Shown here in pieces: positions 362 to 12,243 of a DNA stretch of 12,358 bases (positions are counted from its first letter, which is position 1; the number at the start of each line of letters is the position of its first letter). This stretch comes from Candidatus Firestoneibacteriota bacterium (GTDB lineage: Bacteria; Oederibacteriota; D2-FULL-39-29; JBDRBU01), in assembly GCA_043822305.1 (NCBI GenBank), contig JBDRBU010000116.1, positions 1 through 12,358 of the forward strand, read 5' to 3'. Below the pieces are notes generated by a model that saw nothing but the letters and a program-made list of their open reading frames with translations, was not told the DNA's origin and made no database searches. The translations under genes and the position numbers were made by a program.

Positions 362-1057
362 GTGTTTAGAAGAATAGTAATAGTTTTCGTAAGTATGTTT
401 CTTGTTTCGTTAGGATATAGCGAGGAAGTTACTAAAACCGATGATACCCAAAAGAAAATAGTTAAATACATGGAAGAAGTCCAGGAATATAATACGAAAC
501 AAATAAAAGATTTTTCGGCTAAACTTATTCAAAGTACTATGGGCGGTGAACCTTTGACCTCAATGTATTTTCAGAAAAATAATCCCGACGGGTCTATGTG
601 TATGAGGACGGAATCTAAAATATTTGATAAAAAAATTATTGTAATATTAAACAGCAAGGGAATGTGGAGCATTGACGGAGACAAGGCATATAAAATAGAG
701 TATATGGATAATATGAAGAAAGATGCTGGTCAAGAGATTTTTAAAAGCATTAAACCCGAAGACATTGAACAAGGTGAAAAGACATTTTCAAGGGAAGAAT
801 CAAAATATAAAGATATCCCGTGCTATTTGGTCAGTGTGAAAACTGTACTTTCTGAGGAGGCAAAAAAACTAAAAAAAGAAATGATAGATAAGTTTATGCC
901 AAAAGATATGAAAGCACTACTCAAGAATATCAATATGAATGATGTGATGCCGTTTGTGACAGAATCATATATAGGGAAAGAAGATAAGTTTATTTATAGA
1001 ACAGTATCTTACAATGAAAAGGAAAAGTCATATCAAAAACATCTTATGAAGATGTAA
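362..1057 (+). CDS. Secreted LolA-like/DUF4412-like protein; frameshifted near its 3' end (true end probably 1164)
   Basis: SD AAGGAGG at 349-355, GTG start, Sec signal peptide MFRRIVIVFVSMFLVSLGYS; beta-rich segments (MRTES, MWSIDG, IPCYLVSV, YIGKEDKFIYRTVSYN) typical of LolA-fold proteins; the expected C-terminal motif lies in another frame. Confidence 0.75.
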   Translation: MFRRIVIVFVSMFLVSLGYSEEVTKTDDTQKKIVKYMEEVQEYNTKQIKDFSAKLIQSTMGGEPLTSMYFQKNNPDGSMCMRTESKIFDKKIIVILNSKGMWSIDGDKAYKIEYMDNMKKDAGQEIFKSIKPEDIEQGEKTFSREESKYKDIPCYLVSVKTVLSEEAKKLKKEMIDKFMPKDMKALLKNINMNDVMPFVTESYIGKEDKFIYRTVSYNEKEKSYQKHLMKM

Positions 1058-1164
1058 AAATAAATGGTGGTCTAAAAGATGATTTATTTGAAGTGCCAAA
1101 GTCAATGAAAATTGAAGTAAAGAAAAATATATCAGATATGTTGAAGAATGTAAAAATTAAGTAA
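1021..1164 (+). other. Out-of-frame C-terminus of the 362 gene
   Basis: Frame starting at 1021 reads GKVISKTSYEDVKINGGLKDDLFEVPKSMKIEVKKNISDMLKNVKIK* (TAA 1162-1164). YxDVKINxGLxDDLFEVP is a typical LolA-like C-terminal motif, and the stop sits directly before the next SD. Confidence 0.8.
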
Positions 1165-1180
1165 AAAAGGAGGTGAAAAA

Positions 1181-1468
1181 GTGATGAAAAAGATAATAGT
1201 TGTTACTTGTGTTATTTTGTCATTATTAGTAATTCAAGTAGAACAGGTGAATGCATACACATATGAGGAATGTAAGAGTGCTTCAATTGACTGGCTTTGG
1301 GCACTTGCCGAAGCGGCGGCAGTTTGTTATTTGTGTGTTAGGTTTCCTACTCCTCCTGTTTGTCTTTCTTGTATTACGCTTGCTGAAAGAGCAGTTCGAC
1401 TGGAAGCGAGAGCGGATTATATATGCAGCAATGTTAATGATGAACCAGGGCCTCCTCCTTCTTCTTAA
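1181..1468 (+). CDS. Sec-exported cysteine-rich small protein (25-aa signal, 70-aa mature part with 6 Cys); candidate peptide precursor
   Basis: Strong SD AGGAGGTG at 1168-1175; GTG 1181 or ATG 1184; signal peptide KK + hydrophobic core + VNA cleavage site; mature YTYEECK...CYLC...PTPP...CLSC...YICSN...PGPPPSS. Confidence 0.85.
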   Translation: MMKKIIVVTCVILSLLVIQVEQVNAYTYEECKSASIDWLWALAEAAAVCYLCVRFPTPPVCLSCITLAERAVRLEARADYICSNVNDEPGPPPSS

Positions 1469-1509
1469 TTATTCTTATTAGAAGCAATGATGATATTTTT
1501 TGTAAATAC

Positions 1510-1562
1510 TGTAGATACTTACTGAACACCGTCATTATGGAGGTGTTTGGTGAGTATTTATA
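1510..1562 (+). other. Intra-operon RNA stem-loop (21-bp stem, 11-nt loop)
   Basis: 1510-1530 pairs with 1542-1562: 16 Watson-Crick and 5 G.U pairs, no mismatches on the + strand; no following U-tract. Confidence 0.8.
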
Positions 1563-1586
1563 AATTGATGCTAGGAGGTTAATAAT

Positions 1587-1853
1587 ATGAAAGCAATAAT
1601 GGTGACTATTATTGTCATAGTAGTTTCTATGTTATTGGGATTTTTAACAAGAAAACGTTTTAATAAAAAAAATGTAAAACGATCAAAAGGATACTTTATA
1701 TCTACGGCTATTATTTTTCTTATTGCAGTTATTACTGCGATTCAATATTTTAGAAATAAAGATTTGATGACTCTCGTTACTAGTTTATTCATGATATTTA
1801 TGACAATATGGAGTTTAATAAGCGGAATACAACTTCGTAAAAAAGGCGAATAA
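1587..1853 (+). CDS. Small membrane protein, about 3 TM helices, function unknown
   Basis: SD AGGAGG at 1573-1578; three hydrophobic stretches with a strongly basic loop (RKRFNKKNVKRSK). Confidence 0.8.
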   Translation: MKAIMVTIIVIVVSMLLGFLTRKRFNKKNVKRSKGYFISTAIIFLIAVITAIQYFRNKDLMTLVTSLFMIFMTIWSLISGIQLRKKGE

Positions 1854-1862
1854 TTTATTATT

Positions 1863-3404
1863 GTGTCTCATTATCTTTCAATACTAAGAATACAATTATT
1901 TTTTAAAACGCCCAATGAGTGCGGGGCGTTTCTTTCTATTGTTACATTTTTATTGATAGGCGTAATTCTTTATTTGAATCAAAAAAATTTGTTTGGTAAA
2001 TTATCAAAAAGTATTGTTTTGATATTAACCCTTCTGACTGTTCTGAGTGAATACCTTCTTGTTTTAACCTACTCTCGCGGTGGCTATATTGCTTTTGTTT
2101 TTACAGCTTTAATGTTTTTGTTGGCCGTGAAAAATGGCAAAGCAAAAAAACAATTAGTTCTTTTCTTAAGTGTATTTATTGTATTACTGATTCTTACACC
2201 AAAAGGGATAAGCCGAGTTGGATCAATAATTGCTTCTGATGATGCAATAGGAAACAGATTAATCCTCTGGAAAAGCGCGACAGAAATTACTTTTGACCAT
2301 TGGCTTTTTGGAACAGGTTTTCACTATTTCGGCGATACTTTCGTCGGTTGGTATCAACCGTTGGATATGTTTATTGATTATGCAAGCGCGGTTAATACTC
2401 CTTTGACGATTGGGGCTGGAGGAGGAATTTTCTTACTTTTCATATATCTTATGATAAGTTTTACCGCAATACTCGGACCAATCATGGAGAATGTAAAGAA
2501 AGAAAACGGAATAATCCTTGGTGTTGCTTTTTCTCAATTATCTTATTTTATTGCCGGTATTTCCAGCACTTTTATTCATTCCTTTTGGCTAAACATAAGT
2601 ATTGTAATTTTGTTGATAATTAGTTTTGCATATTTAATAAAATGTTGGTTTAAAAGAAAAGATAGATTAAAGGATATATTGTTAACTTTAAGGACTCCTT
2701 TTTTAATTTCTTTGATAATTTGTTTGGCTTTAATCGTTTTAGGTAGTTACTTTAATAGTGAAGCAAGCACTCACCACAAAATACTAAAGAAAATAGGCAA
2801 GAATAAAATAACTGTATATATCCTTACACCGGCAAAAGCAAAGAAAAAAGCAATAATTCTTTATACTTTTAACAATAAAAGCACATGTATTGGAAGAGAA
2901 GCAAGGAGAACTCTGCGATATCTTGCAGAAAAAGGATATATTGTCTTTACCCCGGAATTAACAGATATGGATCTTCACGGTTTGGCTGATTTAAAAGAAG
3001 TTGTTAACTTTGTTTTGGAGCAAAAGGCATATAGTGATTTTTCTGTAATACAAATGGGGCAGTCCGAAGGTGGGCAATATACTATCATTGCTGCGTCTGA
3101 AATATCAAACCCTCGTCTTAAAGCGGTTGTTTCAATAGGTGCCCCCGCAAAATGGCCATTTAAGGAAATGTCTCCTGAAAGATATATCGCAAATGTAAAG
3201 GTCCCAATTTTTTTACTGCATGGCAGTGAGGATTTGGTTTATGAAGTGGAAAACGCTTATATTCTGGAAAAATCCTGTAAAAATGCAAAGTCAAAATTGT
3301 TAGTCGTAAAAGGTGTTGCAAATTATTTGGAACCCAAAAGAAATGAAGCCATAGATGAAATTGACAAGTTTATAAATAAGGTATTAAAAAATGAAAAGAA
3401 ATAA
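1863..3404 (+). CDS. O-antigen ligase (Wzy_C/WaaL/O-OTase-like) membrane domain fused to a C-terminal alpha/beta-hydrolase domain
   Basis: Ligase-family motifs FKTPNECGAFL, LVLTYSRGG, RLILWKSA, WLFGTGFHYFG; hydrolase motifs YLAEKGYIVF, GQSEGG (S401), PIFLLHGSED (D457). Start uncertain because the GTG has no clear SD. Confidence 0.8.
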   Translation: MSHYLSILRIQLFFKTPNECGAFLSIVTFLLIGVILYLNQKNLFGKLSKSIVLILTLLTVLSEYLLVLTYSRGGYIAFVFTALMFLLAVKNGKAKKQLVLFLSVFIVLLILTPKGISRVGSIIASDDAIGNRLILWKSATEITFDHWLFGTGFHYFGDTFVGWYQPLDMFIDYASAVNTPLTIGAGGGIFLLFIYLMISFTAILGPIMENVKKENGIILGVAFSQLSYFIAGISSTFIHSFWLNISIVILLIISFAYLIKCWFKRKDRLKDILLTLRTPFLISLIICLALIVLGSYFNSEASTHHKILKKIGKNKITVYILTPAKAKKKAIILYTFNNKSTCIGREARRTLRYLAEKGYIVFTPELTDMDLHGLADLKEVVNFVLEQKAYSDFSVIQMGQSEGGQYTIIAASEISNPRLKAVVSIGAPAKWPFKEMSPERYIANVKVPIFLLHGSEDLVYEVENAYILEKSCKNAKSKLLVVKGVANYLEPKRNEAIDEIDKFINKVLKNEKK

Positions 3405-3984
3405 ACTGGAACAAAATTCAGAGTCGGGGTCGTCCCTGACCCCGACATTTAAATCTATGTTGATTGCCTTAAATATTGCTTTGTGCAGTATTGCGGTTGG
3501 ATTTCTCTTTAACTCCATAAATCCTTTAGGACTGGAGATAAAAACACCTGAAACCGTTTATAATAAAGTTATTATATTTAAAGACGGCAAAAGGATTGAC
3601 CCCGAAAAAGGAATTCTTATGTATGGTTACGCCGATGAATTGGAGTATCTCGATTTGCGTTTAGCAAGACGATATTATGACGGTGGGAAATCTGTTTTCA
3701 TTGATGCCAGAACTAAAGACGGTTTTGCGAACGGACATATAAAGGGTGCGATTTCGTTACCAGCTGGCAATTTTGAAGAAAATTATAATAATTCAAAATC
3801 TAAAATCGAGAAGGACTCTGCCTTAATCATATATTGCAGTAATCCTCTTTGTTCGTTGAGTGAGAGAGTAGCCGTACTGTTAAAACTAAAAAAACACAAG
3901 AACATTAAGGTACTCAGCAGTGGCTGGGGTGGGTGGGATGATGCGAAGTATCCGACGGAGAAGACAGGAAATGAAACGAAGTAA
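3391..3984 (+). CDS. Membrane-anchored rhodanese-domain protein with CxxxxC active-site loop
   Basis: VFIDAR, FANGHIKGAISLP, IIYCSNPLC, C-terminal GWGGW..KYPTE; N-terminal TM ending NSINPLGL; 14-bp overlap with the upstream gene. Confidence 0.9.
   Translation: MKRNKLEQNSESGSSLTPTFKSMLIALNIALCSIAVGFLFNSINPLGLEIKTPETVYNKVIIFKDGKRIDPEKGILMYGYADELEYLDLRLARRYYDGGKSVFIDARTKDGFANGHIKGAISLPAGNFEENYNNSKSKIEKDSALIIYCSNPLCSLSERVAVLLKLKKHKNIKVLSSGWGGWDDAKYPTEKTGNETK
3423..3446. repeat. Perfect 9-bp GC-rich inverted repeat (REP-like) inside the rhodanese 5' end
   Basis: GTCGGGGTC-gtccct-GACCCCGAC. Confidence 0.7.
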
Positions 3985-4414
3985 ATTATTTGAAAAATAT
4001 TTAACTAAGAATATTCTATTTGTTTTAAGATTGATAATAGGCATCTTATTCATCCTTTCAAGTTTTAATGATTTATACAATCCTGAATATTTTCGAACCT
4101 CTATATTAATGTATAAAATACTTCCTGTGATGTTGGCTTCTATTACGGCCATCGTTCTTCCATGGTTGGAATTTGTATGCGGAATATTAATTATCCTTAA
4201 TGTGCACACAAAAAGTAGTGCCTTAATATTATCCGTGATTTTGGTTGCTTTCATCGGTGCTATCTCGTTAAATCTGGTAAGAGGATATATTCACGATTGC
4301 GGATGTTTTAATATTTTCGGGTTTAAAGAGAATATCAGTATTTTCGTCGTTATCAGAGATATTGTGTTGTTGTGCTTTACGGTCGTATTAAGTATAAAGG
4401 GGGAGAAAAAATGA
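3971..4414 (+). CDS. MauE/DoxX-family redox-associated membrane protein (147 aa)
   Basis: LRLIIGILF, P..F..SI..Y..LP, LPWLEFVCG, DCGCF, RD motifs. ATG 3971 is preferred over the track start 3920, which would add an implausible leader overlapping the rhodanese. Confidence 0.88.
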   Translation: MKRSKLFEKYLTKNILFVLRLIIGILFILSSFNDLYNPEYFRTSILMYKILPVMLASITAIVLPWLEFVCGILIILNVHTKSSALILSVILVAFIGAISLNLVRGYIHDCGCFNIFGFKENISIFVVIRDIVLLCFTVVLSIKGEKK

Positions 4415-5841
4415 TAAAGAAAACTCTTATTTTAGTGTTATTAAATATAATAGTTGCTATTGGTTCTGATGATTTTACGGCAAAATACGGGCAATATGTG
4501 ATTGATACTGATTTTCCGAACAACAGGAAGGTTGTTGTGTATTATGCTGTCCCGATAAGAGGCGACAGAGTTCTTTCACTAATCGCGAGCAATATGGTTT
4601 TCTGTGCTCCATATGTGGGAGAGACAGAGTTTTTTAAAAGAAATTTTAATAACTATTTTGTGAAAAAACTTGGTTGTAGTGTGTTTTCTTTTGAGTTTAA
4701 ATATACTGAGGAGAATGCAGGAGACAGAAAAAAGTGGTATTATTTTAAAGAATCAGGTTGGCACGATTTAGCCCTGGAAGTTCAGAATAAATTGATACAT
4801 GATTATGGGCTTGAGAGAAGGAAAATAATTGTTGTAGGAGAGTCCGGCGGAGCAAGTATGGGACAGCAAATGGGTATATACTATCCGGACAAAATTGAGG
4901 CCGTGGCTGGTATTGGTGGTGGTTACTTTGACGAACCAAAAGTTAAATCTAATGTTGCCTGGTTGATGATAAACACCTGGGGGGATATCGCCATGGTTAA
5001 AAATGACGAATTTTGTAGAAACGCCGATGCTTTAGGTATGCAAGTTTTAAGAATACTCACACCACCCGTCTGGGACAAAAAAGGCGATGATAATTTTCAT
5101 CATATACCAAGCAATCTTGCGGAAAAATATGTCTTTGAATTTGTAAAAGGGATACTTGATTTAAGAAAGTATAATGGCGGAAAAGTCCCAATGTGTGAAA
5201 AGTGGCCGGTGAAGTATTCTTCCGAAGATAAAATCTTGTATTTCCCTTCGGAAGATTTTAAGAGGACATGGGAAAAACTGCCGCATAAATTTATAAGAGC
5301 GATGCTGAAGCCGTCTGAGAATAATGAAGTGGTGGAGTTTCCGGCTAAAGACGCTAAAAAGATAGTATTATTTTTACAGGATAAGAAGTTTTATTCCACC
5401 GTGCTTTTGGATAATGTCTATTATCTGCATGAACTCGGATATGATGTGGTTACCATAGATATTGAAATGGATATATATGATGTTTGTAAAAAAAGAATTA
5501 TTAAGGCACTACAATATTCTGTTGAGAAGTCGAAGAAAGAAGGCAAAGAACTTTATGCCGTTGGTTTTTGGGAGTCTGGGCTTACGCTTTTAAGTGAAGT
5601 GAGCAAGTTAAAGAAGTCCGAAGTTAAAAAAATCCTTATCTTTAATCCTCAAAGAAATTTATATTCGGAAGCGGTTAATGATTTTCCTTCGGGTTGTGAG
5701 TGTAATATATATTACACAAAAGATTATTGGGATGATAAGCCGATTACAGATAAAACCTGGTGTAAAGAAAAGGATTTGCACACAAAAAGTGATTTTGGAT
5801 ATAATTGGTTTAATTTTCTTAAAAACCAGATAAATAATTAA
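4411..5841 (+). CDS. Secreted protein with an alpha/beta-hydrolase domain and a second, degenerate hydrolase-like domain (476 aa)
   Basis: SD GGGGAG before ATG 4411, ATGA overlap with the MauE stop; signal-like MIKKTLILVLLNIIVAIG; VVGESGGA nucleophile elbow, INTWGD, FHHIP; second domain LHELGYDVVTID...YAVGFWESG. Confidence 0.8.
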   Translation: MIKKTLILVLLNIIVAIGSDDFTAKYGQYVIDTDFPNNRKVVVYYAVPIRGDRVLSLIASNMVFCAPYVGETEFFKRNFNNYFVKKLGCSVFSFEFKYTEENAGDRKKWYYFKESGWHDLALEVQNKLIHDYGLERRKIIVVGESGGASMGQQMGIYYPDKIEAVAGIGGGYFDEPKVKSNVAWLMINTWGDIAMVKNDEFCRNADALGMQVLRILTPPVWDKKGDDNFHHIPSNLAEKYVFEFVKGILDLRKYNGGKVPMCEKWPVKYSSEDKILYFPSEDFKRTWEKLPHKFIRAMLKPSENNEVVEFPAKDAKKIVLFLQDKKFYSTVLLDNVYYLHELGYDVVTIDIEMDIYDVCKKRIIKALQYSVEKSKKEGKELYAVGFWESGLTLLSEVSKLKKSEVKKILIFNPQRNLYSEAVNDFPSGCECNIYYTKDYWDDKPITDKTWCKEKDLHTKSDFGYNWFNFLKNQINN

Positions 5842-6343: not shown

Positions 6344-8164
6344 ATGAAATATCTTAAAATAGTGTTAAGTATATTTGTTGTTTTTGTTATTGGATATTTA
6401 TTGTTTAAGGAAAATATCAAGGAAAGCAAGGGAAGTAAAGAAAGTAGGGAAAGCAAGGGAAGTAGGGAAAGTAAAGAAAGTAAAATAAAAGAAAGTTTTT
6501 TAAAACCGAAATTTGAGATGGCTACTTCAGATATGAAATTTGATTTTAAGAAGGATTTAGGAATTAAAAGTAAATCTAAAACATCATTAGCAGGTTCCAA
6601 ACCTGATTATAGTGTAAGCATAGCGCAAACTGGCAATATTTCTGGAACGGCTGTTTTACAGGATTCACAATTTAATGAAGGTATATGCATTTCTTTAGAA
6701 AAGACAGTTTACTCTACATATACAGATGAAAATGGGAAATATTCATTTCAGTTTTTACAAGAAGGTAATTATAATTTAATAGCCAGTATGTCGGAATATA
6801 TTTCTGAAAAGAAAGAAAATATAACTGTATCGAGTAGTAAAGATATTAAAATCCCGGAGATAGTGCTCCAGCCTAATTTTGATATGGCTTATCCAAAAAT
6901 CATTAGGGTAAAGCCAGAAAGGAATTCAAAAAATGTTCCTGTTCCAAATTCTTTTGGAGTATATGGGATGGAAAAAGAGATGGGCCGGACTGGATTTTGC
7001 CTGAGTTTAGATTTTAGCAAACCTATGAATATAGAAAGTGTAGAGAAAGGAATAAACTTTGAACCACCTTTGAATTACAACTTTCAATGGATTGGCAACA
7101 AAAGACTATTATTAAAAACAAATACTTCTTTGCCTGTTGATCCATTAAGATTAAAGACAACATATAAGATTTTATTTAAAGAGGGTATATCAGCCATTGA
7201 TGAGAAAAAGATGGTAGATTTAACTCCAATTGAGTTTAGTTTGGGAGGATTTAAAGTAGTAGAAACAATTCCTAAAAATAATTCAAGTAATCATCCGCCT
7301 CATAAAAGGATGTTCGAAATATTTTTTAATTCACCAGTTGATAGGAACACGGTTAATTTTGATACATTTTTAATATCTCCCAAAATTGATGGAAAGATTA
7401 ACTTCTCAGATACTAAATTAAATTGTATCTCATATTCTTCTGTTGAAAAGTTACCTTCAGATACTAAGTGGTTAATTACTTTAAAAAAAGATATAAAAGA
7501 TTCGTACGGTATTGGTTTAGATGAAGATTGTAATTTAAATTTTTTAACATCTCCTTTGAAAATTGCCGATGTTTGGCCAAAGGATAATGAAAAAAATGTT
7601 CTAACAAGTAGTTATCCATATATTTTTTTTAATACAACAGTAGATAAAGATTCTTTTAAGAATTCATTTGTTATTTTACCTGAAATAAAAGGAAATTTTG
7701 TCTGGTCAGCAGATAAAAATGAAGAGGAATATTGCAATTTTGTGCATAGTGATTATTTTAATACTAATACAATTTATAAAATTAGTATATCTGATAATGT
7801 TGTTGATCTATATGGTAAAAAGATGCAAAGACCATATAGTTTTTCTTTCAAAACTGAATCACCGCGGGTTAGTTATATGAGGCCTGATAGTGGGAAGGTG
7901 AATATAGAAACAGATACTGAGGTTAAATTAGTTTTTAATACTTTAATGGAACGAGATGAAACAGTTAAATGTGTGTCCATATTTCCATTAGAAGAAATTT
8001 TGTTTCATTGGGGTTCTGAAAAAAATTATGATATATTAAGTATTGAGCCAAAGCATAAATGGAAATCCAATACTGGTTATACCTTTGTCGTGAATAATAA
8101 AGCAAAGGATTTAAATGGTAATAGTCTAATCAAGTGGTTTAAAGGGGAGATATTTACCAAATGA
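6344..8164 (+). CDS. Membrane-anchored surface protein: carboxypeptidase-regulatory-like domain plus four bacterial Ig-like (Big_5/SbsA-type) domains
   Basis: N-terminal TM; TGNISGT...[19 protein letters not shown]; four repeats of the pattern P.......(N/V)V....I.F(S/N)..(M/V)(D/N)...T.Y.I......D..G......F.T. Confidence 0.85.
6422..6484 (+). repeat. Seven tandem 9-bp units (consensus GRAAGYARR) encoding [21 protein letters not shown]
   Basis: gaaagcaag ggaagtaaa gaaagtagg gaaagcaag ggaagtagg gaaagtaaa gaaagtaaa. Confidence 0.9.
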
Positions 8165-11118: not shown

Positions 11119-11481
11119 ATGCAAAAAGAAAAACGTATACATGAAAGAGTTTCGGTTGTTATGTCTGGAGTTAGGTTTAAGGATGTTGATGCTTTAGAAC
11201 CATCACAAATGCTTGGTGATATAAAAAATATTAGTTTGGGTGGAATATGTGTTGGGACTAATGAGGAAATAAAAGCTGGTGGTAAACTTAATTTGAGTTT
11301 TGTATTTCCTGATGGTAGAGAATTTTCTGACATAACCGGGAAAGTTATTTGGGTAAAAAGGAGTGATGAATCGAATTTAGCAGGGATTAATTTTTTAAAA
11401 TTAGGATTATTTCAAAGGATAAAATTATCAAACTCTATAAAAAGAATTATGACTTACTTTAATGTAAGATCAATATATTAG
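11119..11481 (+). CDS. Standalone PilZ-domain protein (c-di-GMP receptor)
   Basis: EKRIHERV (RxxxR), NISLGG ([D/N]xSxGG), GKVIWV, GINF. Confidence 0.9.
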   Translation: MQKEKRIHERVSVVMSGVRFKDVDALEPSQMLGDIKNISLGGICVGTNEEIKAGGKLNLSFVFPDGREFSDITGKVIWVKRSDESNLAGINFLKLGLFQRIKLSNSIKRIMTYFNVRSIY

Positions 11482-11553: not shown

Positions 11554-11883
11554 ATGTTTAAAGAAGAAAAAAGGGAATATAAAAGAATACCAGTATATTT
11601 CAAGATAGCCAGTCTTAGCGTTCTTGAACCTTCTGAAAATTGTGGTTATATTAGAGATATAAGCGAAGGCGGAATGAAAATAGACGCTATTACAAGAATT
11701 GAATCAGGTATTACGATTCTGTTAAATTTTTCATTACCTGTTGATGATTTTGAGTTTAAAGATGTAGGTGCAATAGTTAAGTGGATAGCAAAAGGTAGAA
11801 TGGGGATAGAGTTTATAGATTTAAGTGAAAGACAAAGACAAGTTATAGAAGTATATGCAACTGAGTATGGCCATTTAAAGTAG
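11554..11883 (+). CDS. Standalone PilZ-domain protein (c-di-GMP receptor)
   Basis: EKREYKRI (RxxxR), DISEGG, AIVKW, MGIEF. Confidence 0.92.
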   Translation: MFKEEKREYKRIPVYFKIASLSVLEPSENCGYIRDISEGGMKIDAITRIESGITILLNFSLPVDDFEFKDVGAIVKWIAKGRMGIEFIDLSERQRQVIEVYATEYGHLK

Positions 11884-12003: not shown

Positions 12004-12243
12004 ATGGATTGGATTCGAAAAATAAAAAGATGTTTTGTTAATAACTCAGTATTTTATACGAGACATGCTAAGTATGAGATGGAAAATGAAGAATTTGGTC
12101 GAATATTTGATGATGAGGTGTGCGAATCTGTTTGTAATGGAAAAGTTATAGAAAAATATCCAGAAGATAAGCCATATCCAAGTGTTTTGATATATGGAAG
12201 AACAAAAATTAATCGTTCTTTAGAGGCTGTCCCAAAACTATGA
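12004..12243 (+). pseudogene. DUF4258-like (putative toxin-antitoxin toxin-like) gene, C-terminally truncated
   Basis: FYTRHA..EM, NGKVIEKYPEDKPYPSVLIYGRT..NR matches the family; the usual PLHxV...ITVY ending is replaced by LEAVPKL*, read from an IS-like end. Confidence 0.7.

Follow-up and report, generated by a model that had tools for sequence, protein, structure and literature searches.

The contig JBDRBU010000116.1 (C116) of a Candidatus Firestoneibacteriota bacterium (assembly GCA_043822305.1; 2.15 Mb in 125 contigs, with an estimated completeness of 96.8%) was analyzed at its full length of 12,358 bp, and we refer to this whole stretch, which has a G+C content of 31%, as the window. It contains at coordinates 1181–1468 a gene for a small, exported, cysteine-rich protein, and we describe here this protein, its relatives, and the conserved cassette of genes in which it is found. 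Translation from the GTG at 1181 gives a product of 95 residues and from the ATG at 1184 one of 94 residues (P0002), and an AGGAGG ribosome-binding site, read directly from the forward strand at 1168–1173, is positioned 7 nt from the GTG and 10 nt from the ATG. A signal peptide, MKKIIVVTCVILSLLVIQVEQVNA, is encoded at 1184–1255 on the forward strand, recognized by eye from its Sec-type pattern and with putative cleavage after VNA; the homologues have the same n/h/c signal pattern followed by Y-T-x-x-x-C. The remaining region, 1256–1468 on the same strand, encodes the mature protein of 70 residues together with the stop codon, the first mature residue being the tyrosine specified by codon 1256–1258, and translation, an AlphaFold2 model, and the family alignment all bear on its description as a hairpin protein. 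We conclude that the open reading frame (ORF) at 1184–1468 is a genuine gene whose product is small and exported.

The mature protein has cysteines at residues 6, 24, 27, 36, 39, and 57, with intervals of 17, 2, 8, 2, and 17 residues between them. The resulting pattern, C-X17-C-X2-C-X8-C-X2-C-X17-C, is centered on an X8 segment with the sequence VRFPTPPV, and the two X17 segments contain six and four alanines. A first-pass annotation of this DNA had pointed to the exact mirror symmetry of the spacing around a turn, and translation confirms it; moreover, the spacing recurs unchanged in P0003, a protein with 55% identity. When six cysteines are placed in 70 positions, 215,985 of the 131,115,985 placements have exact mirror symmetry (p = 0.0016), a probability that is post hoc for a single peptide. 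The protein is acidic to neutral rather than cationic, and its C-terminus reads ...PPPSS.

The family to which this protein belongs is very small. Neither Pfam (at E values up to 0.01) nor NCBIfam contains a family that matches the 95-residue product, and a single-sequence search of 5.8 billion clusters returned the query alone. When 1.84 billion representatives were searched exhaustively with phmmer, two proteins reached E ≤ 0.001, the query and P0003 (87 residues, E 1.5e-18), and a profile search of the 5.8 billion clusters found four proteins among 6,519 candidates, P0002, P0003, P0004, and P0005, the last of which is assigned by one record to a Candidatus Firestonebacteria metagenome-assembled genome. 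Three of the 99 genomes of the phylum give strong matches (E < 1e-37), namely the genome containing the window (G000), G002, and G010, and ten others match with E values of 0.015–0.07 only. A match in genome G013 (E 8.8e-4) is to a 57-residue ORF with two cysteines and no signal peptide, and one in G001 (E 0.017) overlies an integrase gene; both were treated as chance. No further member was found when the family profile was compared with the small ORFs of 34 loci, and a scan of genome contigs recovered the G010 record only. A search of PDB sequences gave nothing below an E value of 0.15, and structure searches, described below, returned only generic long helical hairpins, in agreement with the initial view that the protein belongs to no named family.

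The family alignment shows the signal peptide, the mature N-terminus Y-T-x-x-x-C, and a conserved C-terminal motif, [YW]-[IV]-C-[SN]-x-[VI]-[ND]-[DG]-E, around the last cysteine. The G002 protein and P0004 differ by an indel of two codons that is in frame, which supports the reading frame. The homologues keep the cysteines in part: all six are present in P0003 with spacing identical to that in the window protein, and P0005, from genome G010, retains the outer four (6, 24, 39, and 57), with G002, P0004, and a paralogue on contig C112 having five each. In P0005 residues 27 and 36 are both gone, and their joint loss is as expected if they are partners. On this comparison of sequences, the conserved core of the family appears to consist of two outer rungs, with an inner rung that varies.

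The C112 paralogue is in the same genome as the window and is the second-best family-profile match among 8,089 small ORFs (E 0.013; hhalign probability 48.7%). Its gene (locus L032, 1642–1875) contains an in-frame TAG at 1840–1842, and the next ten codons read S-E-M-Y-D-A-C-N-G-E, corresponding to the C-terminal motif of the family. Recoding of TAG was considered and rejected, as TAG ends 207 of 1,148 long ORFs of this genome, and from its sequence this copy seems to be nonsense-mutated, mis-assembled, or truncated.

AlphaFold2, run with a single sequence, predicts an antiparallel helical hairpin, as the first-pass annotation had proposed. The mean predicted local distance difference test (pLDDT) score is 80.9, with blocks of 90–98 over residues 31–80, and the two helices span residues 25–54 and 58–87 of the precursor, joined by a three-residue turn at mature residues F30-P31-T32. 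The numbers of the two helix ends flanking the turn (mature residues 29 and 33) sum to 62 and those of each cysteine pair sum to 63, and the predicted turn thus lies within one residue of the mirror center. Spacings of 18 and 3 residues within each helix would place the cysteines inside a 60-degree arc and thus on one helical face, and in this model we infer that they occupy facing pairs on the two helices. Foldseek found no match in the PDB at E ≤ 0.001, the highest Z in a wide VIA search was 9.9 and its matches were generic long hairpins only, and nothing in the Atlas scored above 0.77 by features.

The peptide gene is part of a group of genes extending from 362 to 5841, all on the forward strand and with short gaps or overlaps between them. 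It is preceded by a gene at 362–1164, taken from the ORF list, for a secreted LolA/MucB-RseB-like protein, here called X, and followed at 1587–1853 by a gene for an 88-residue membrane protein with three predicted transmembrane segments and only sub-threshold Pfam matches. At 1863–3404 is a gene for a polytopic protein in which a Wzy_C (O-antigen-ligase-like) region (Pfam E 1.7e-13) is joined to a C-terminal DLH-type alpha/beta serine hydrolase with a GQSEG motif (E 1.4e-7); its orthologues have 72%, 50%, and 32% identity, and full-length fusions of this type are present in three of the 99 genomes of the phylum and at three of 33 metagenome loci. Then come genes for a rhodanese with a single transmembrane anchor and a Y-C-x4-C active-site loop (3391–3984; Pfam Rhodanese E 3.5e-14, and alignment), a MauE/DoxX membrane protein, one loop of which is predicted to be periplasmic and contains the motif H-D-C-G-C (3920–4414; Pfam MauE E 2.8e-22, DoxX E 3.1e-9), and a secreted alpha/beta-hydrolase-like protein of 489 residues with a GESGG motif (4372–5841, with a likely start at ATG 4411), for which NCBIfam gives only a weak match of PHA-depolymerase type (E 5.3e-6). 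By a crude hydropathy-based topology, three parts face the periplasm: the loop with H-D-C-G-C, the domain of the rhodanese, and the hydrolase of the Wzy_C fusion.

The same gene order is found in the window, in G002, where the 88-residue gene is missing, and in G010 as far as the end of the contig, and the genome of the window has a second copy of the cassette on contig C112 with an extra rhodanese gene in front. Together with a more distant cassette on the metagenome contig L043 there are five, and in all of them the peptide gene either adjoins the Wzy_C gene or is within two genes of it; the 88-residue gene is present in two of the five, those of the window and G010, and absent from G002, C112, and L043. 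The cassette is a conserved extracytoplasmic gene set of which the peptide is a fixed part. The probable ATG of the 489-residue hydrolase overlaps the stop codon of the MauE gene (ATGA, 4411–4414), and there are further overlaps between the rhodanese and MauE genes and between the Wzy_C and rhodanese genes; given these overlapping genes the cassette reads as a single operon. A scan for promoters and terminators gave 32 promoter-like sites against 30.6 expected. Just past the Wzy_C stop codon, where the 5′ part of the rhodanese ORF is AT-rich, there is a GC-rich palindrome of 24 nt (3423–3446) with a 9-bp stem containing seven G-C pairs; it forms an N-terminal insertion relative to the G002 rhodanese orthologue, and from its position in the 5′ part the true rhodanese start may be further downstream.

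Elsewhere in the window, the region 6344–8164 between the cassette and glyQ encodes a secreted protein of 606 residues that contains an ESKGS repeat of low complexity in addition to four Big_5 domains. On the 3′ side of glyQ and glyS are tandem small PilZ-domain genes at 11119–11481 and 11554–11883, and a DUF4258 gene at 12004–12243.

Protein X has no match in Pfam or NCBIfam. The assembled frame in the window stops at 1057 and this copy lacks the C-terminus that the aligned homologues have in common; after a run of five adenines at 1035–1039 the homologous C-terminus runs on in the −1 frame to a stop codon at 1162–1164, the frame at 1042–1167 reading SYEDVKING...LFEVP...KIK*, which matches the homologues. 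The break at the A5 run is either a mistake of assembly in the homopolymer or a true frameshift. The Atlas model of the G010 orthologue aligns with models of LolA, DUF2092, and MucB/RseB at TM scores of 0.54–0.63, providing a lead towards a possible LolA-like fold. The genes for X and the peptide overlap by ATGA in G002 and C112. Prediction of a complex between the G010 pair gave a score of 0.44, the best of three controls scoring 0.02; of 157 solved complexes 116 attain the pass mark used for such predictions, as do two of 215 mismatched pairs, and those that pass with a score of 0.60 or below are only 18 of the 157 and both of these mismatches. The separate runs for this pair share 64% or more of their contacts, and the pLDDT of the partner is 64 or higher, weakly hinting that X may bind the peptide.

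The contig L043 is GC-rich and comes from a different organism, and among 30 more distant Wzy_C loci it is the only one with a signal-bearing, cysteine-rich small ORF in a cassette-like context. Its Wzy_C protein is 31% identical to that of the window (E 5e-14), its homologue of the 489-residue hydrolase has 33% identity over 153 residues (E 3e-21), and there are also genes for a rhodanese and for a 322-residue protein, together with a small exported ORF (P0006). P0006 has cysteines at 7, 11, 22, 41, 52, and 56, and this pattern, C-X3-C-X10-C-X18-C-X10-C-X3-C, is again exactly mirror-symmetric. The similarity of P0006 to the family of the window protein is confined to the signal peptide (hhalign probability 4%), a search with P0006 found itself alone, and Pfam has no match for it. 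AlphaFold2 predicts a hairpin here too, with a pLDDT of 78.6 and helices at 22–44 and 50–77, the center of the loop falling about 2.5 residues before the mirror center. The same symmetry is thus seen in two sequences that are unrelated but occupy equivalent positions in homologous cassettes, which argues for pairing of cysteines across the helices, and with both hairpins being predictions this agreement is the strongest indirect evidence for such pairs.

Two further genes on L043 were considered as counterparts of cassette genes but not accepted as such. The 322-residue protein has only an LFxIPxxxK motif in common with X (hhalign probability 5%), and in the ORF at 1264–2424, a candidate for MauE, Pfam recognizes no MauE but only a motif of prepilin-type N-methylation (N_methyl, E 9.5e-5). 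In the latter ORF a membrane N-terminus with C-H-C is joined to the N-methylation motif, and it may be two genes read as one.

DsbA, DsbB, and VKOR were each found in none of the 12 genomes of the order, and MauE was found in 11 of the 12. There are three MauE copies in the genome of the window, two each in G002 and G010, and no more than one in any of the others, corresponding in each case to one plus the number of cassettes. The third copy in the genome of the window (locus L076, contig C18, 6697–7798, minus strand) forms a pair of a stand-alone, membrane-anchored rhodanese with a CX4C loop and a MauE/DoxX protein, directly upstream of cysS, and this pair looks like a housekeeping copy of the module that is duplicated in each cassette. 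All five of the rhodanese copies from this order have the loop Y-C-x(3-4)-C. The lineage may rely on MauE/DoxX and rhodanese for its extracytoplasmic thiol chemistry.

The explanation that we favor, at a probability of about one half, is that the gene encodes a Sec-exported hairpin of approximately 70 residues whose paired cysteines are cross-linked into as many as three nested disulfides, stapled by the redox pair of its own cassette, and serving the cassette enzymes. The mature protein would fold as an antiparallel two-helix hairpin, and the facing pairs 6–57, 24–39, and 27–36 would be joined in a putative ladder of up to three nested disulfides. Because the lineage shows no DsbA, DsbB, or VKOR, the oxidant that staples the hairpin could be the MauE/DoxX protein, through its CxC loop, acting with the rhodanese and its CX4C loop. 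The LolA-like protein X, whose translation is coupled with that of the hairpin in two cassettes, would hold it, and the hairpin would then serve the Wzy_C and hydrolase enzymes as a partner or acceptor. A bolder version can be put forward as speculation, which we think unlikely to be right in full: in these bacteria without DsbA, DsbB, and VKOR the MauE/DoxX–rhodanese module would be the periplasmic machinery for disulfides (or sulfane sulfur), the hairpin would be stapled rung by rung, carried by the LolA-like chaperone, and then used as a primer or acceptor for a surface polymer made by the Wzy_C-hydrolase protein, with the mirrored cysteines serving as a recognition code irrespective of the rest of the sequence.

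Several observations weigh against a disulfide ladder made in this way. Of the 246 predicted exported soluble proteins of this genome, 224 enter a crude comparison of cysteine counts, which are even in 114 and odd in 110 (p 0.84), and among proteins with neither a signal peptide nor a transmembrane segment the counts are even in 488 and odd in 580; with no Dsb genes and no bias towards even numbers, the periplasm could lack disulfide formation altogether. The redox pair is not universal, since L043 has no MauE by Pfam and the rhodanese loop is without cysteine in both L043 and L042. G002 and P0004 have five cysteines, and in P0004, with arms of the type C-X20-C-X2-C-X33-C-X18-C, the arms are unequal (X20 and X18), the last arm of G002 being X20 as counted by hand; the C112 paralogue likewise has five cysteines if read through its TAG. 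A hydrophobic-moment calculation gives no uniform picture, with angles between the cysteines and the hydrophobic face of 17–85 degrees for the window protein but 100–165 degrees for P0003. Finally, the frameshifted X gene and the TAG in the C112 peptide gene could be assembly errors or signs of decay.

The lack of DsbA, DsbB, and VKOR, and an exported proteome showing no even-cysteine bias, would also fit cysteines that stay reduced and bind Cu(I), Zn, or Fe, the hairpin or a four-helix bundle formed by a hairpin dimer acting as a periplasmic metal binder or store. Copper-storage four-helix bundles with cysteine-lined cores exist, and the window protein and P0003 have CxxC-X8-CxxC near the tip of the hairpin with a spacing able to chelate. 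However, this tetrad is not conserved, the always-conserved pairs 6/57 and 24/39 lie 18 residues apart along the helices and do not provide a single tetrahedral site, the 3/10/18/10/3 pattern of P0006 is equally one of three separate two-cysteine rungs, and there is no conserved histidine, methionine, or other ligand motif. Nor does the arrangement correspond to a zinc ribbon or CxxC-CxxC knuckle, P0005 having one cysteine per side and P0004 a CxxC on one side, in a segment predicted to be helical. Metal binding is thus an unlikely explanation, and we would say the same of a sharper form of the favored one, in which the hairpin is the dedicated protein acceptor of a Wzy_C-type O-oligosaccharyltransferase and carries a glycan on a serine or threonine at the tip (T32 in P-T-P) or on a C-terminal serine. 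The Wzy_C family includes protein O-oligosaccharyltransferases that have the gene for a dedicated pilin acceptor adjacent, which resembles the constant proximity of the peptide and Wzy_C genes, and five of six peptides have threonine or serine in the tip loop, with two serines at the very end of the window protein. But serine, threonine, and proline occur frequently in loops of all kinds, the loop of the C112 peptide, FPDNYL, contains neither serine nor threonine, and the serine-rich tail is absent from P0003 and P0005. In addition, the Wzy_C proteins match no other glycosylation-ligase family in Pfam at E values up to 0.01, and no glycan-synthesis genes were seen in the cassette.

That the product is a free antimicrobial or signaling peptide, as the first-pass annotation had suggested, is disfavored by its context in a cassette of six to seven extracytoplasmic genes. 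A cystine-stapled helical bacteriocin or pheromone, for which the 88-residue membrane protein provides immunity or sensing, would account for a small, exported, cysteine-stapled, and lineage-restricted product and for the three-segment membrane protein that follows in the window and G010, and antimicrobial activity is known for alpha-hairpinins, plant peptides of the same architecture (PMC7191063). However, the membrane protein gene is in only two of the five cassettes, the cassette has no exporter, double-glycine leader, two-component, or quorum-sensing gene, and the peptide is not cationic, is coupled in translation to a periplasmic protein resembling LolA, and always accompanies envelope enzymes. 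It does not resemble a class II bacteriocin either, as the leader is of the Sec type and ends in VNA, and the scanned ORFs of the window include neither an ABC nor a C39 gene. We consider such a role quite improbable. That the ORF is fortuitous or a decaying gene without function we judge to be very improbable indeed: the family is very rare and the assembly has two neighboring defects, the frameshift in X and the TAG of the paralogue, but the frame, the signal peptide, the N-terminal Y-T-x-x-x-C, and the C-terminal C-N-x-x-N-[DG]-E are kept at 24–55% identity across genera, the indel separating G002 from P0004 is one of two whole codons, synteny is conserved, and the ribosome-binding site is strong.

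The stapled hairpin that we favor can be compared with several known systems. The twin CX9C and CX3C (CHCH-type) proteins of the mitochondrial intermembrane space are helical hairpins with equal cysteine spacings and nested disulfides introduced by a dedicated oxidase; these are proteins of eukaryotes, with Mia40/Erv1 as their pathway, whereas the window protein has spacings of X17 and X2 in place of X9 or X3, and no homology was detected. The plant alpha-hairpinins are helix-loop-helix proteins with the pattern C1-X3-C2-Xn-C3-X3-C4 and disulfides C1–C4 and C2–C3 (PMC7191063). They are defense peptides of about 30–40 residues cut from larger precursors, and share with the window protein two antiparallel helices and a loop, here predicted by AlphaFold2, mirror-symmetric cysteines, nested disulfides, which are putative in the window protein, and unstructured tails. 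The window protein differs in being bacterial, in having a Sec signal, 70 residues, helices of approximately 30 residues, spacings of 17/2/8/2/17, and up to three rungs in place of two disulfides, and in belonging to an envelope cassette. It lacks the CX3C motif, outer CX3C pairs being found in P0006 only, and no search reported here gave any sequence similarity to alpha-hairpinins.

Other likenesses concern the neighboring genes. MauE serves the methylamine dehydrogenase (mau) cluster, which has a cysteine-rich small subunit in need of several disulfides, and a gene for a MauE-family (PF07291) membrane protein is likewise in the same operon-like cluster as one for a small exported cysteine-rich protein in the window, C112, and G002, though it was not detected in L043. 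The cassette differs from mau in being without a dehydrogenase large subunit, tryptophan-quinone cofactor genes, and the thioredoxin-like MauD, having a rhodanese domain in that place, and its small protein is a predicted helical hairpin and not a methylamine dehydrogenase light chain. The linkage of the peptide to a Wzy_C enzyme recalls the pilin O-oligosaccharyltransferases, where the gene for a small, exported, disulfide-containing acceptor is next to that for the enzyme, but here there is neither a pilin leader nor a pilin fold, and the Wzy_C protein has a serine hydrolase joined to it. For an integral membrane protein of the DoxX family that acts together with a thiol oxidoreductase of rhodanese type there is a precedent in Mycobacterium tuberculosis, where DoxX and SseA are partners in the membrane oxidoreductase complex DoxX-SseA-SodA (PMC6930017). 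That complex has a stress-defense role on the cytoplasmic side, and the available part of its description mentions neither a dedicated small cysteine-rich substrate nor a Wzy_C enzyme.

Helical hairpins stapled by cystines are known from plants, animal venoms, and mitochondria, and the principle of the fold is thus known from eukaryotes; no description of a bacterial Sec-exported hairpin family of this kind, or of the cassette, was found in full-text searches of the literature. This rare and unnamed family is tied to a previously undescribed cassette of cell-envelope genes. With two helices of 30 residues and up to three putative rungs, the protein would be a very simple natural scaffold, and the rung positions, which shift between homologues yet stay paired, are informative for protein design. 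The occurrence of MauE/DoxX together with rhodanese in 11 of the 12 genomes of the order, and the duplication of their genes into every cassette, hint at how a Dsb-less lineage might oxidize its exported cysteines, and if this pair is a disulfide-forming system, it would fill a gap in the known bacterial pathways of oxidative folding.

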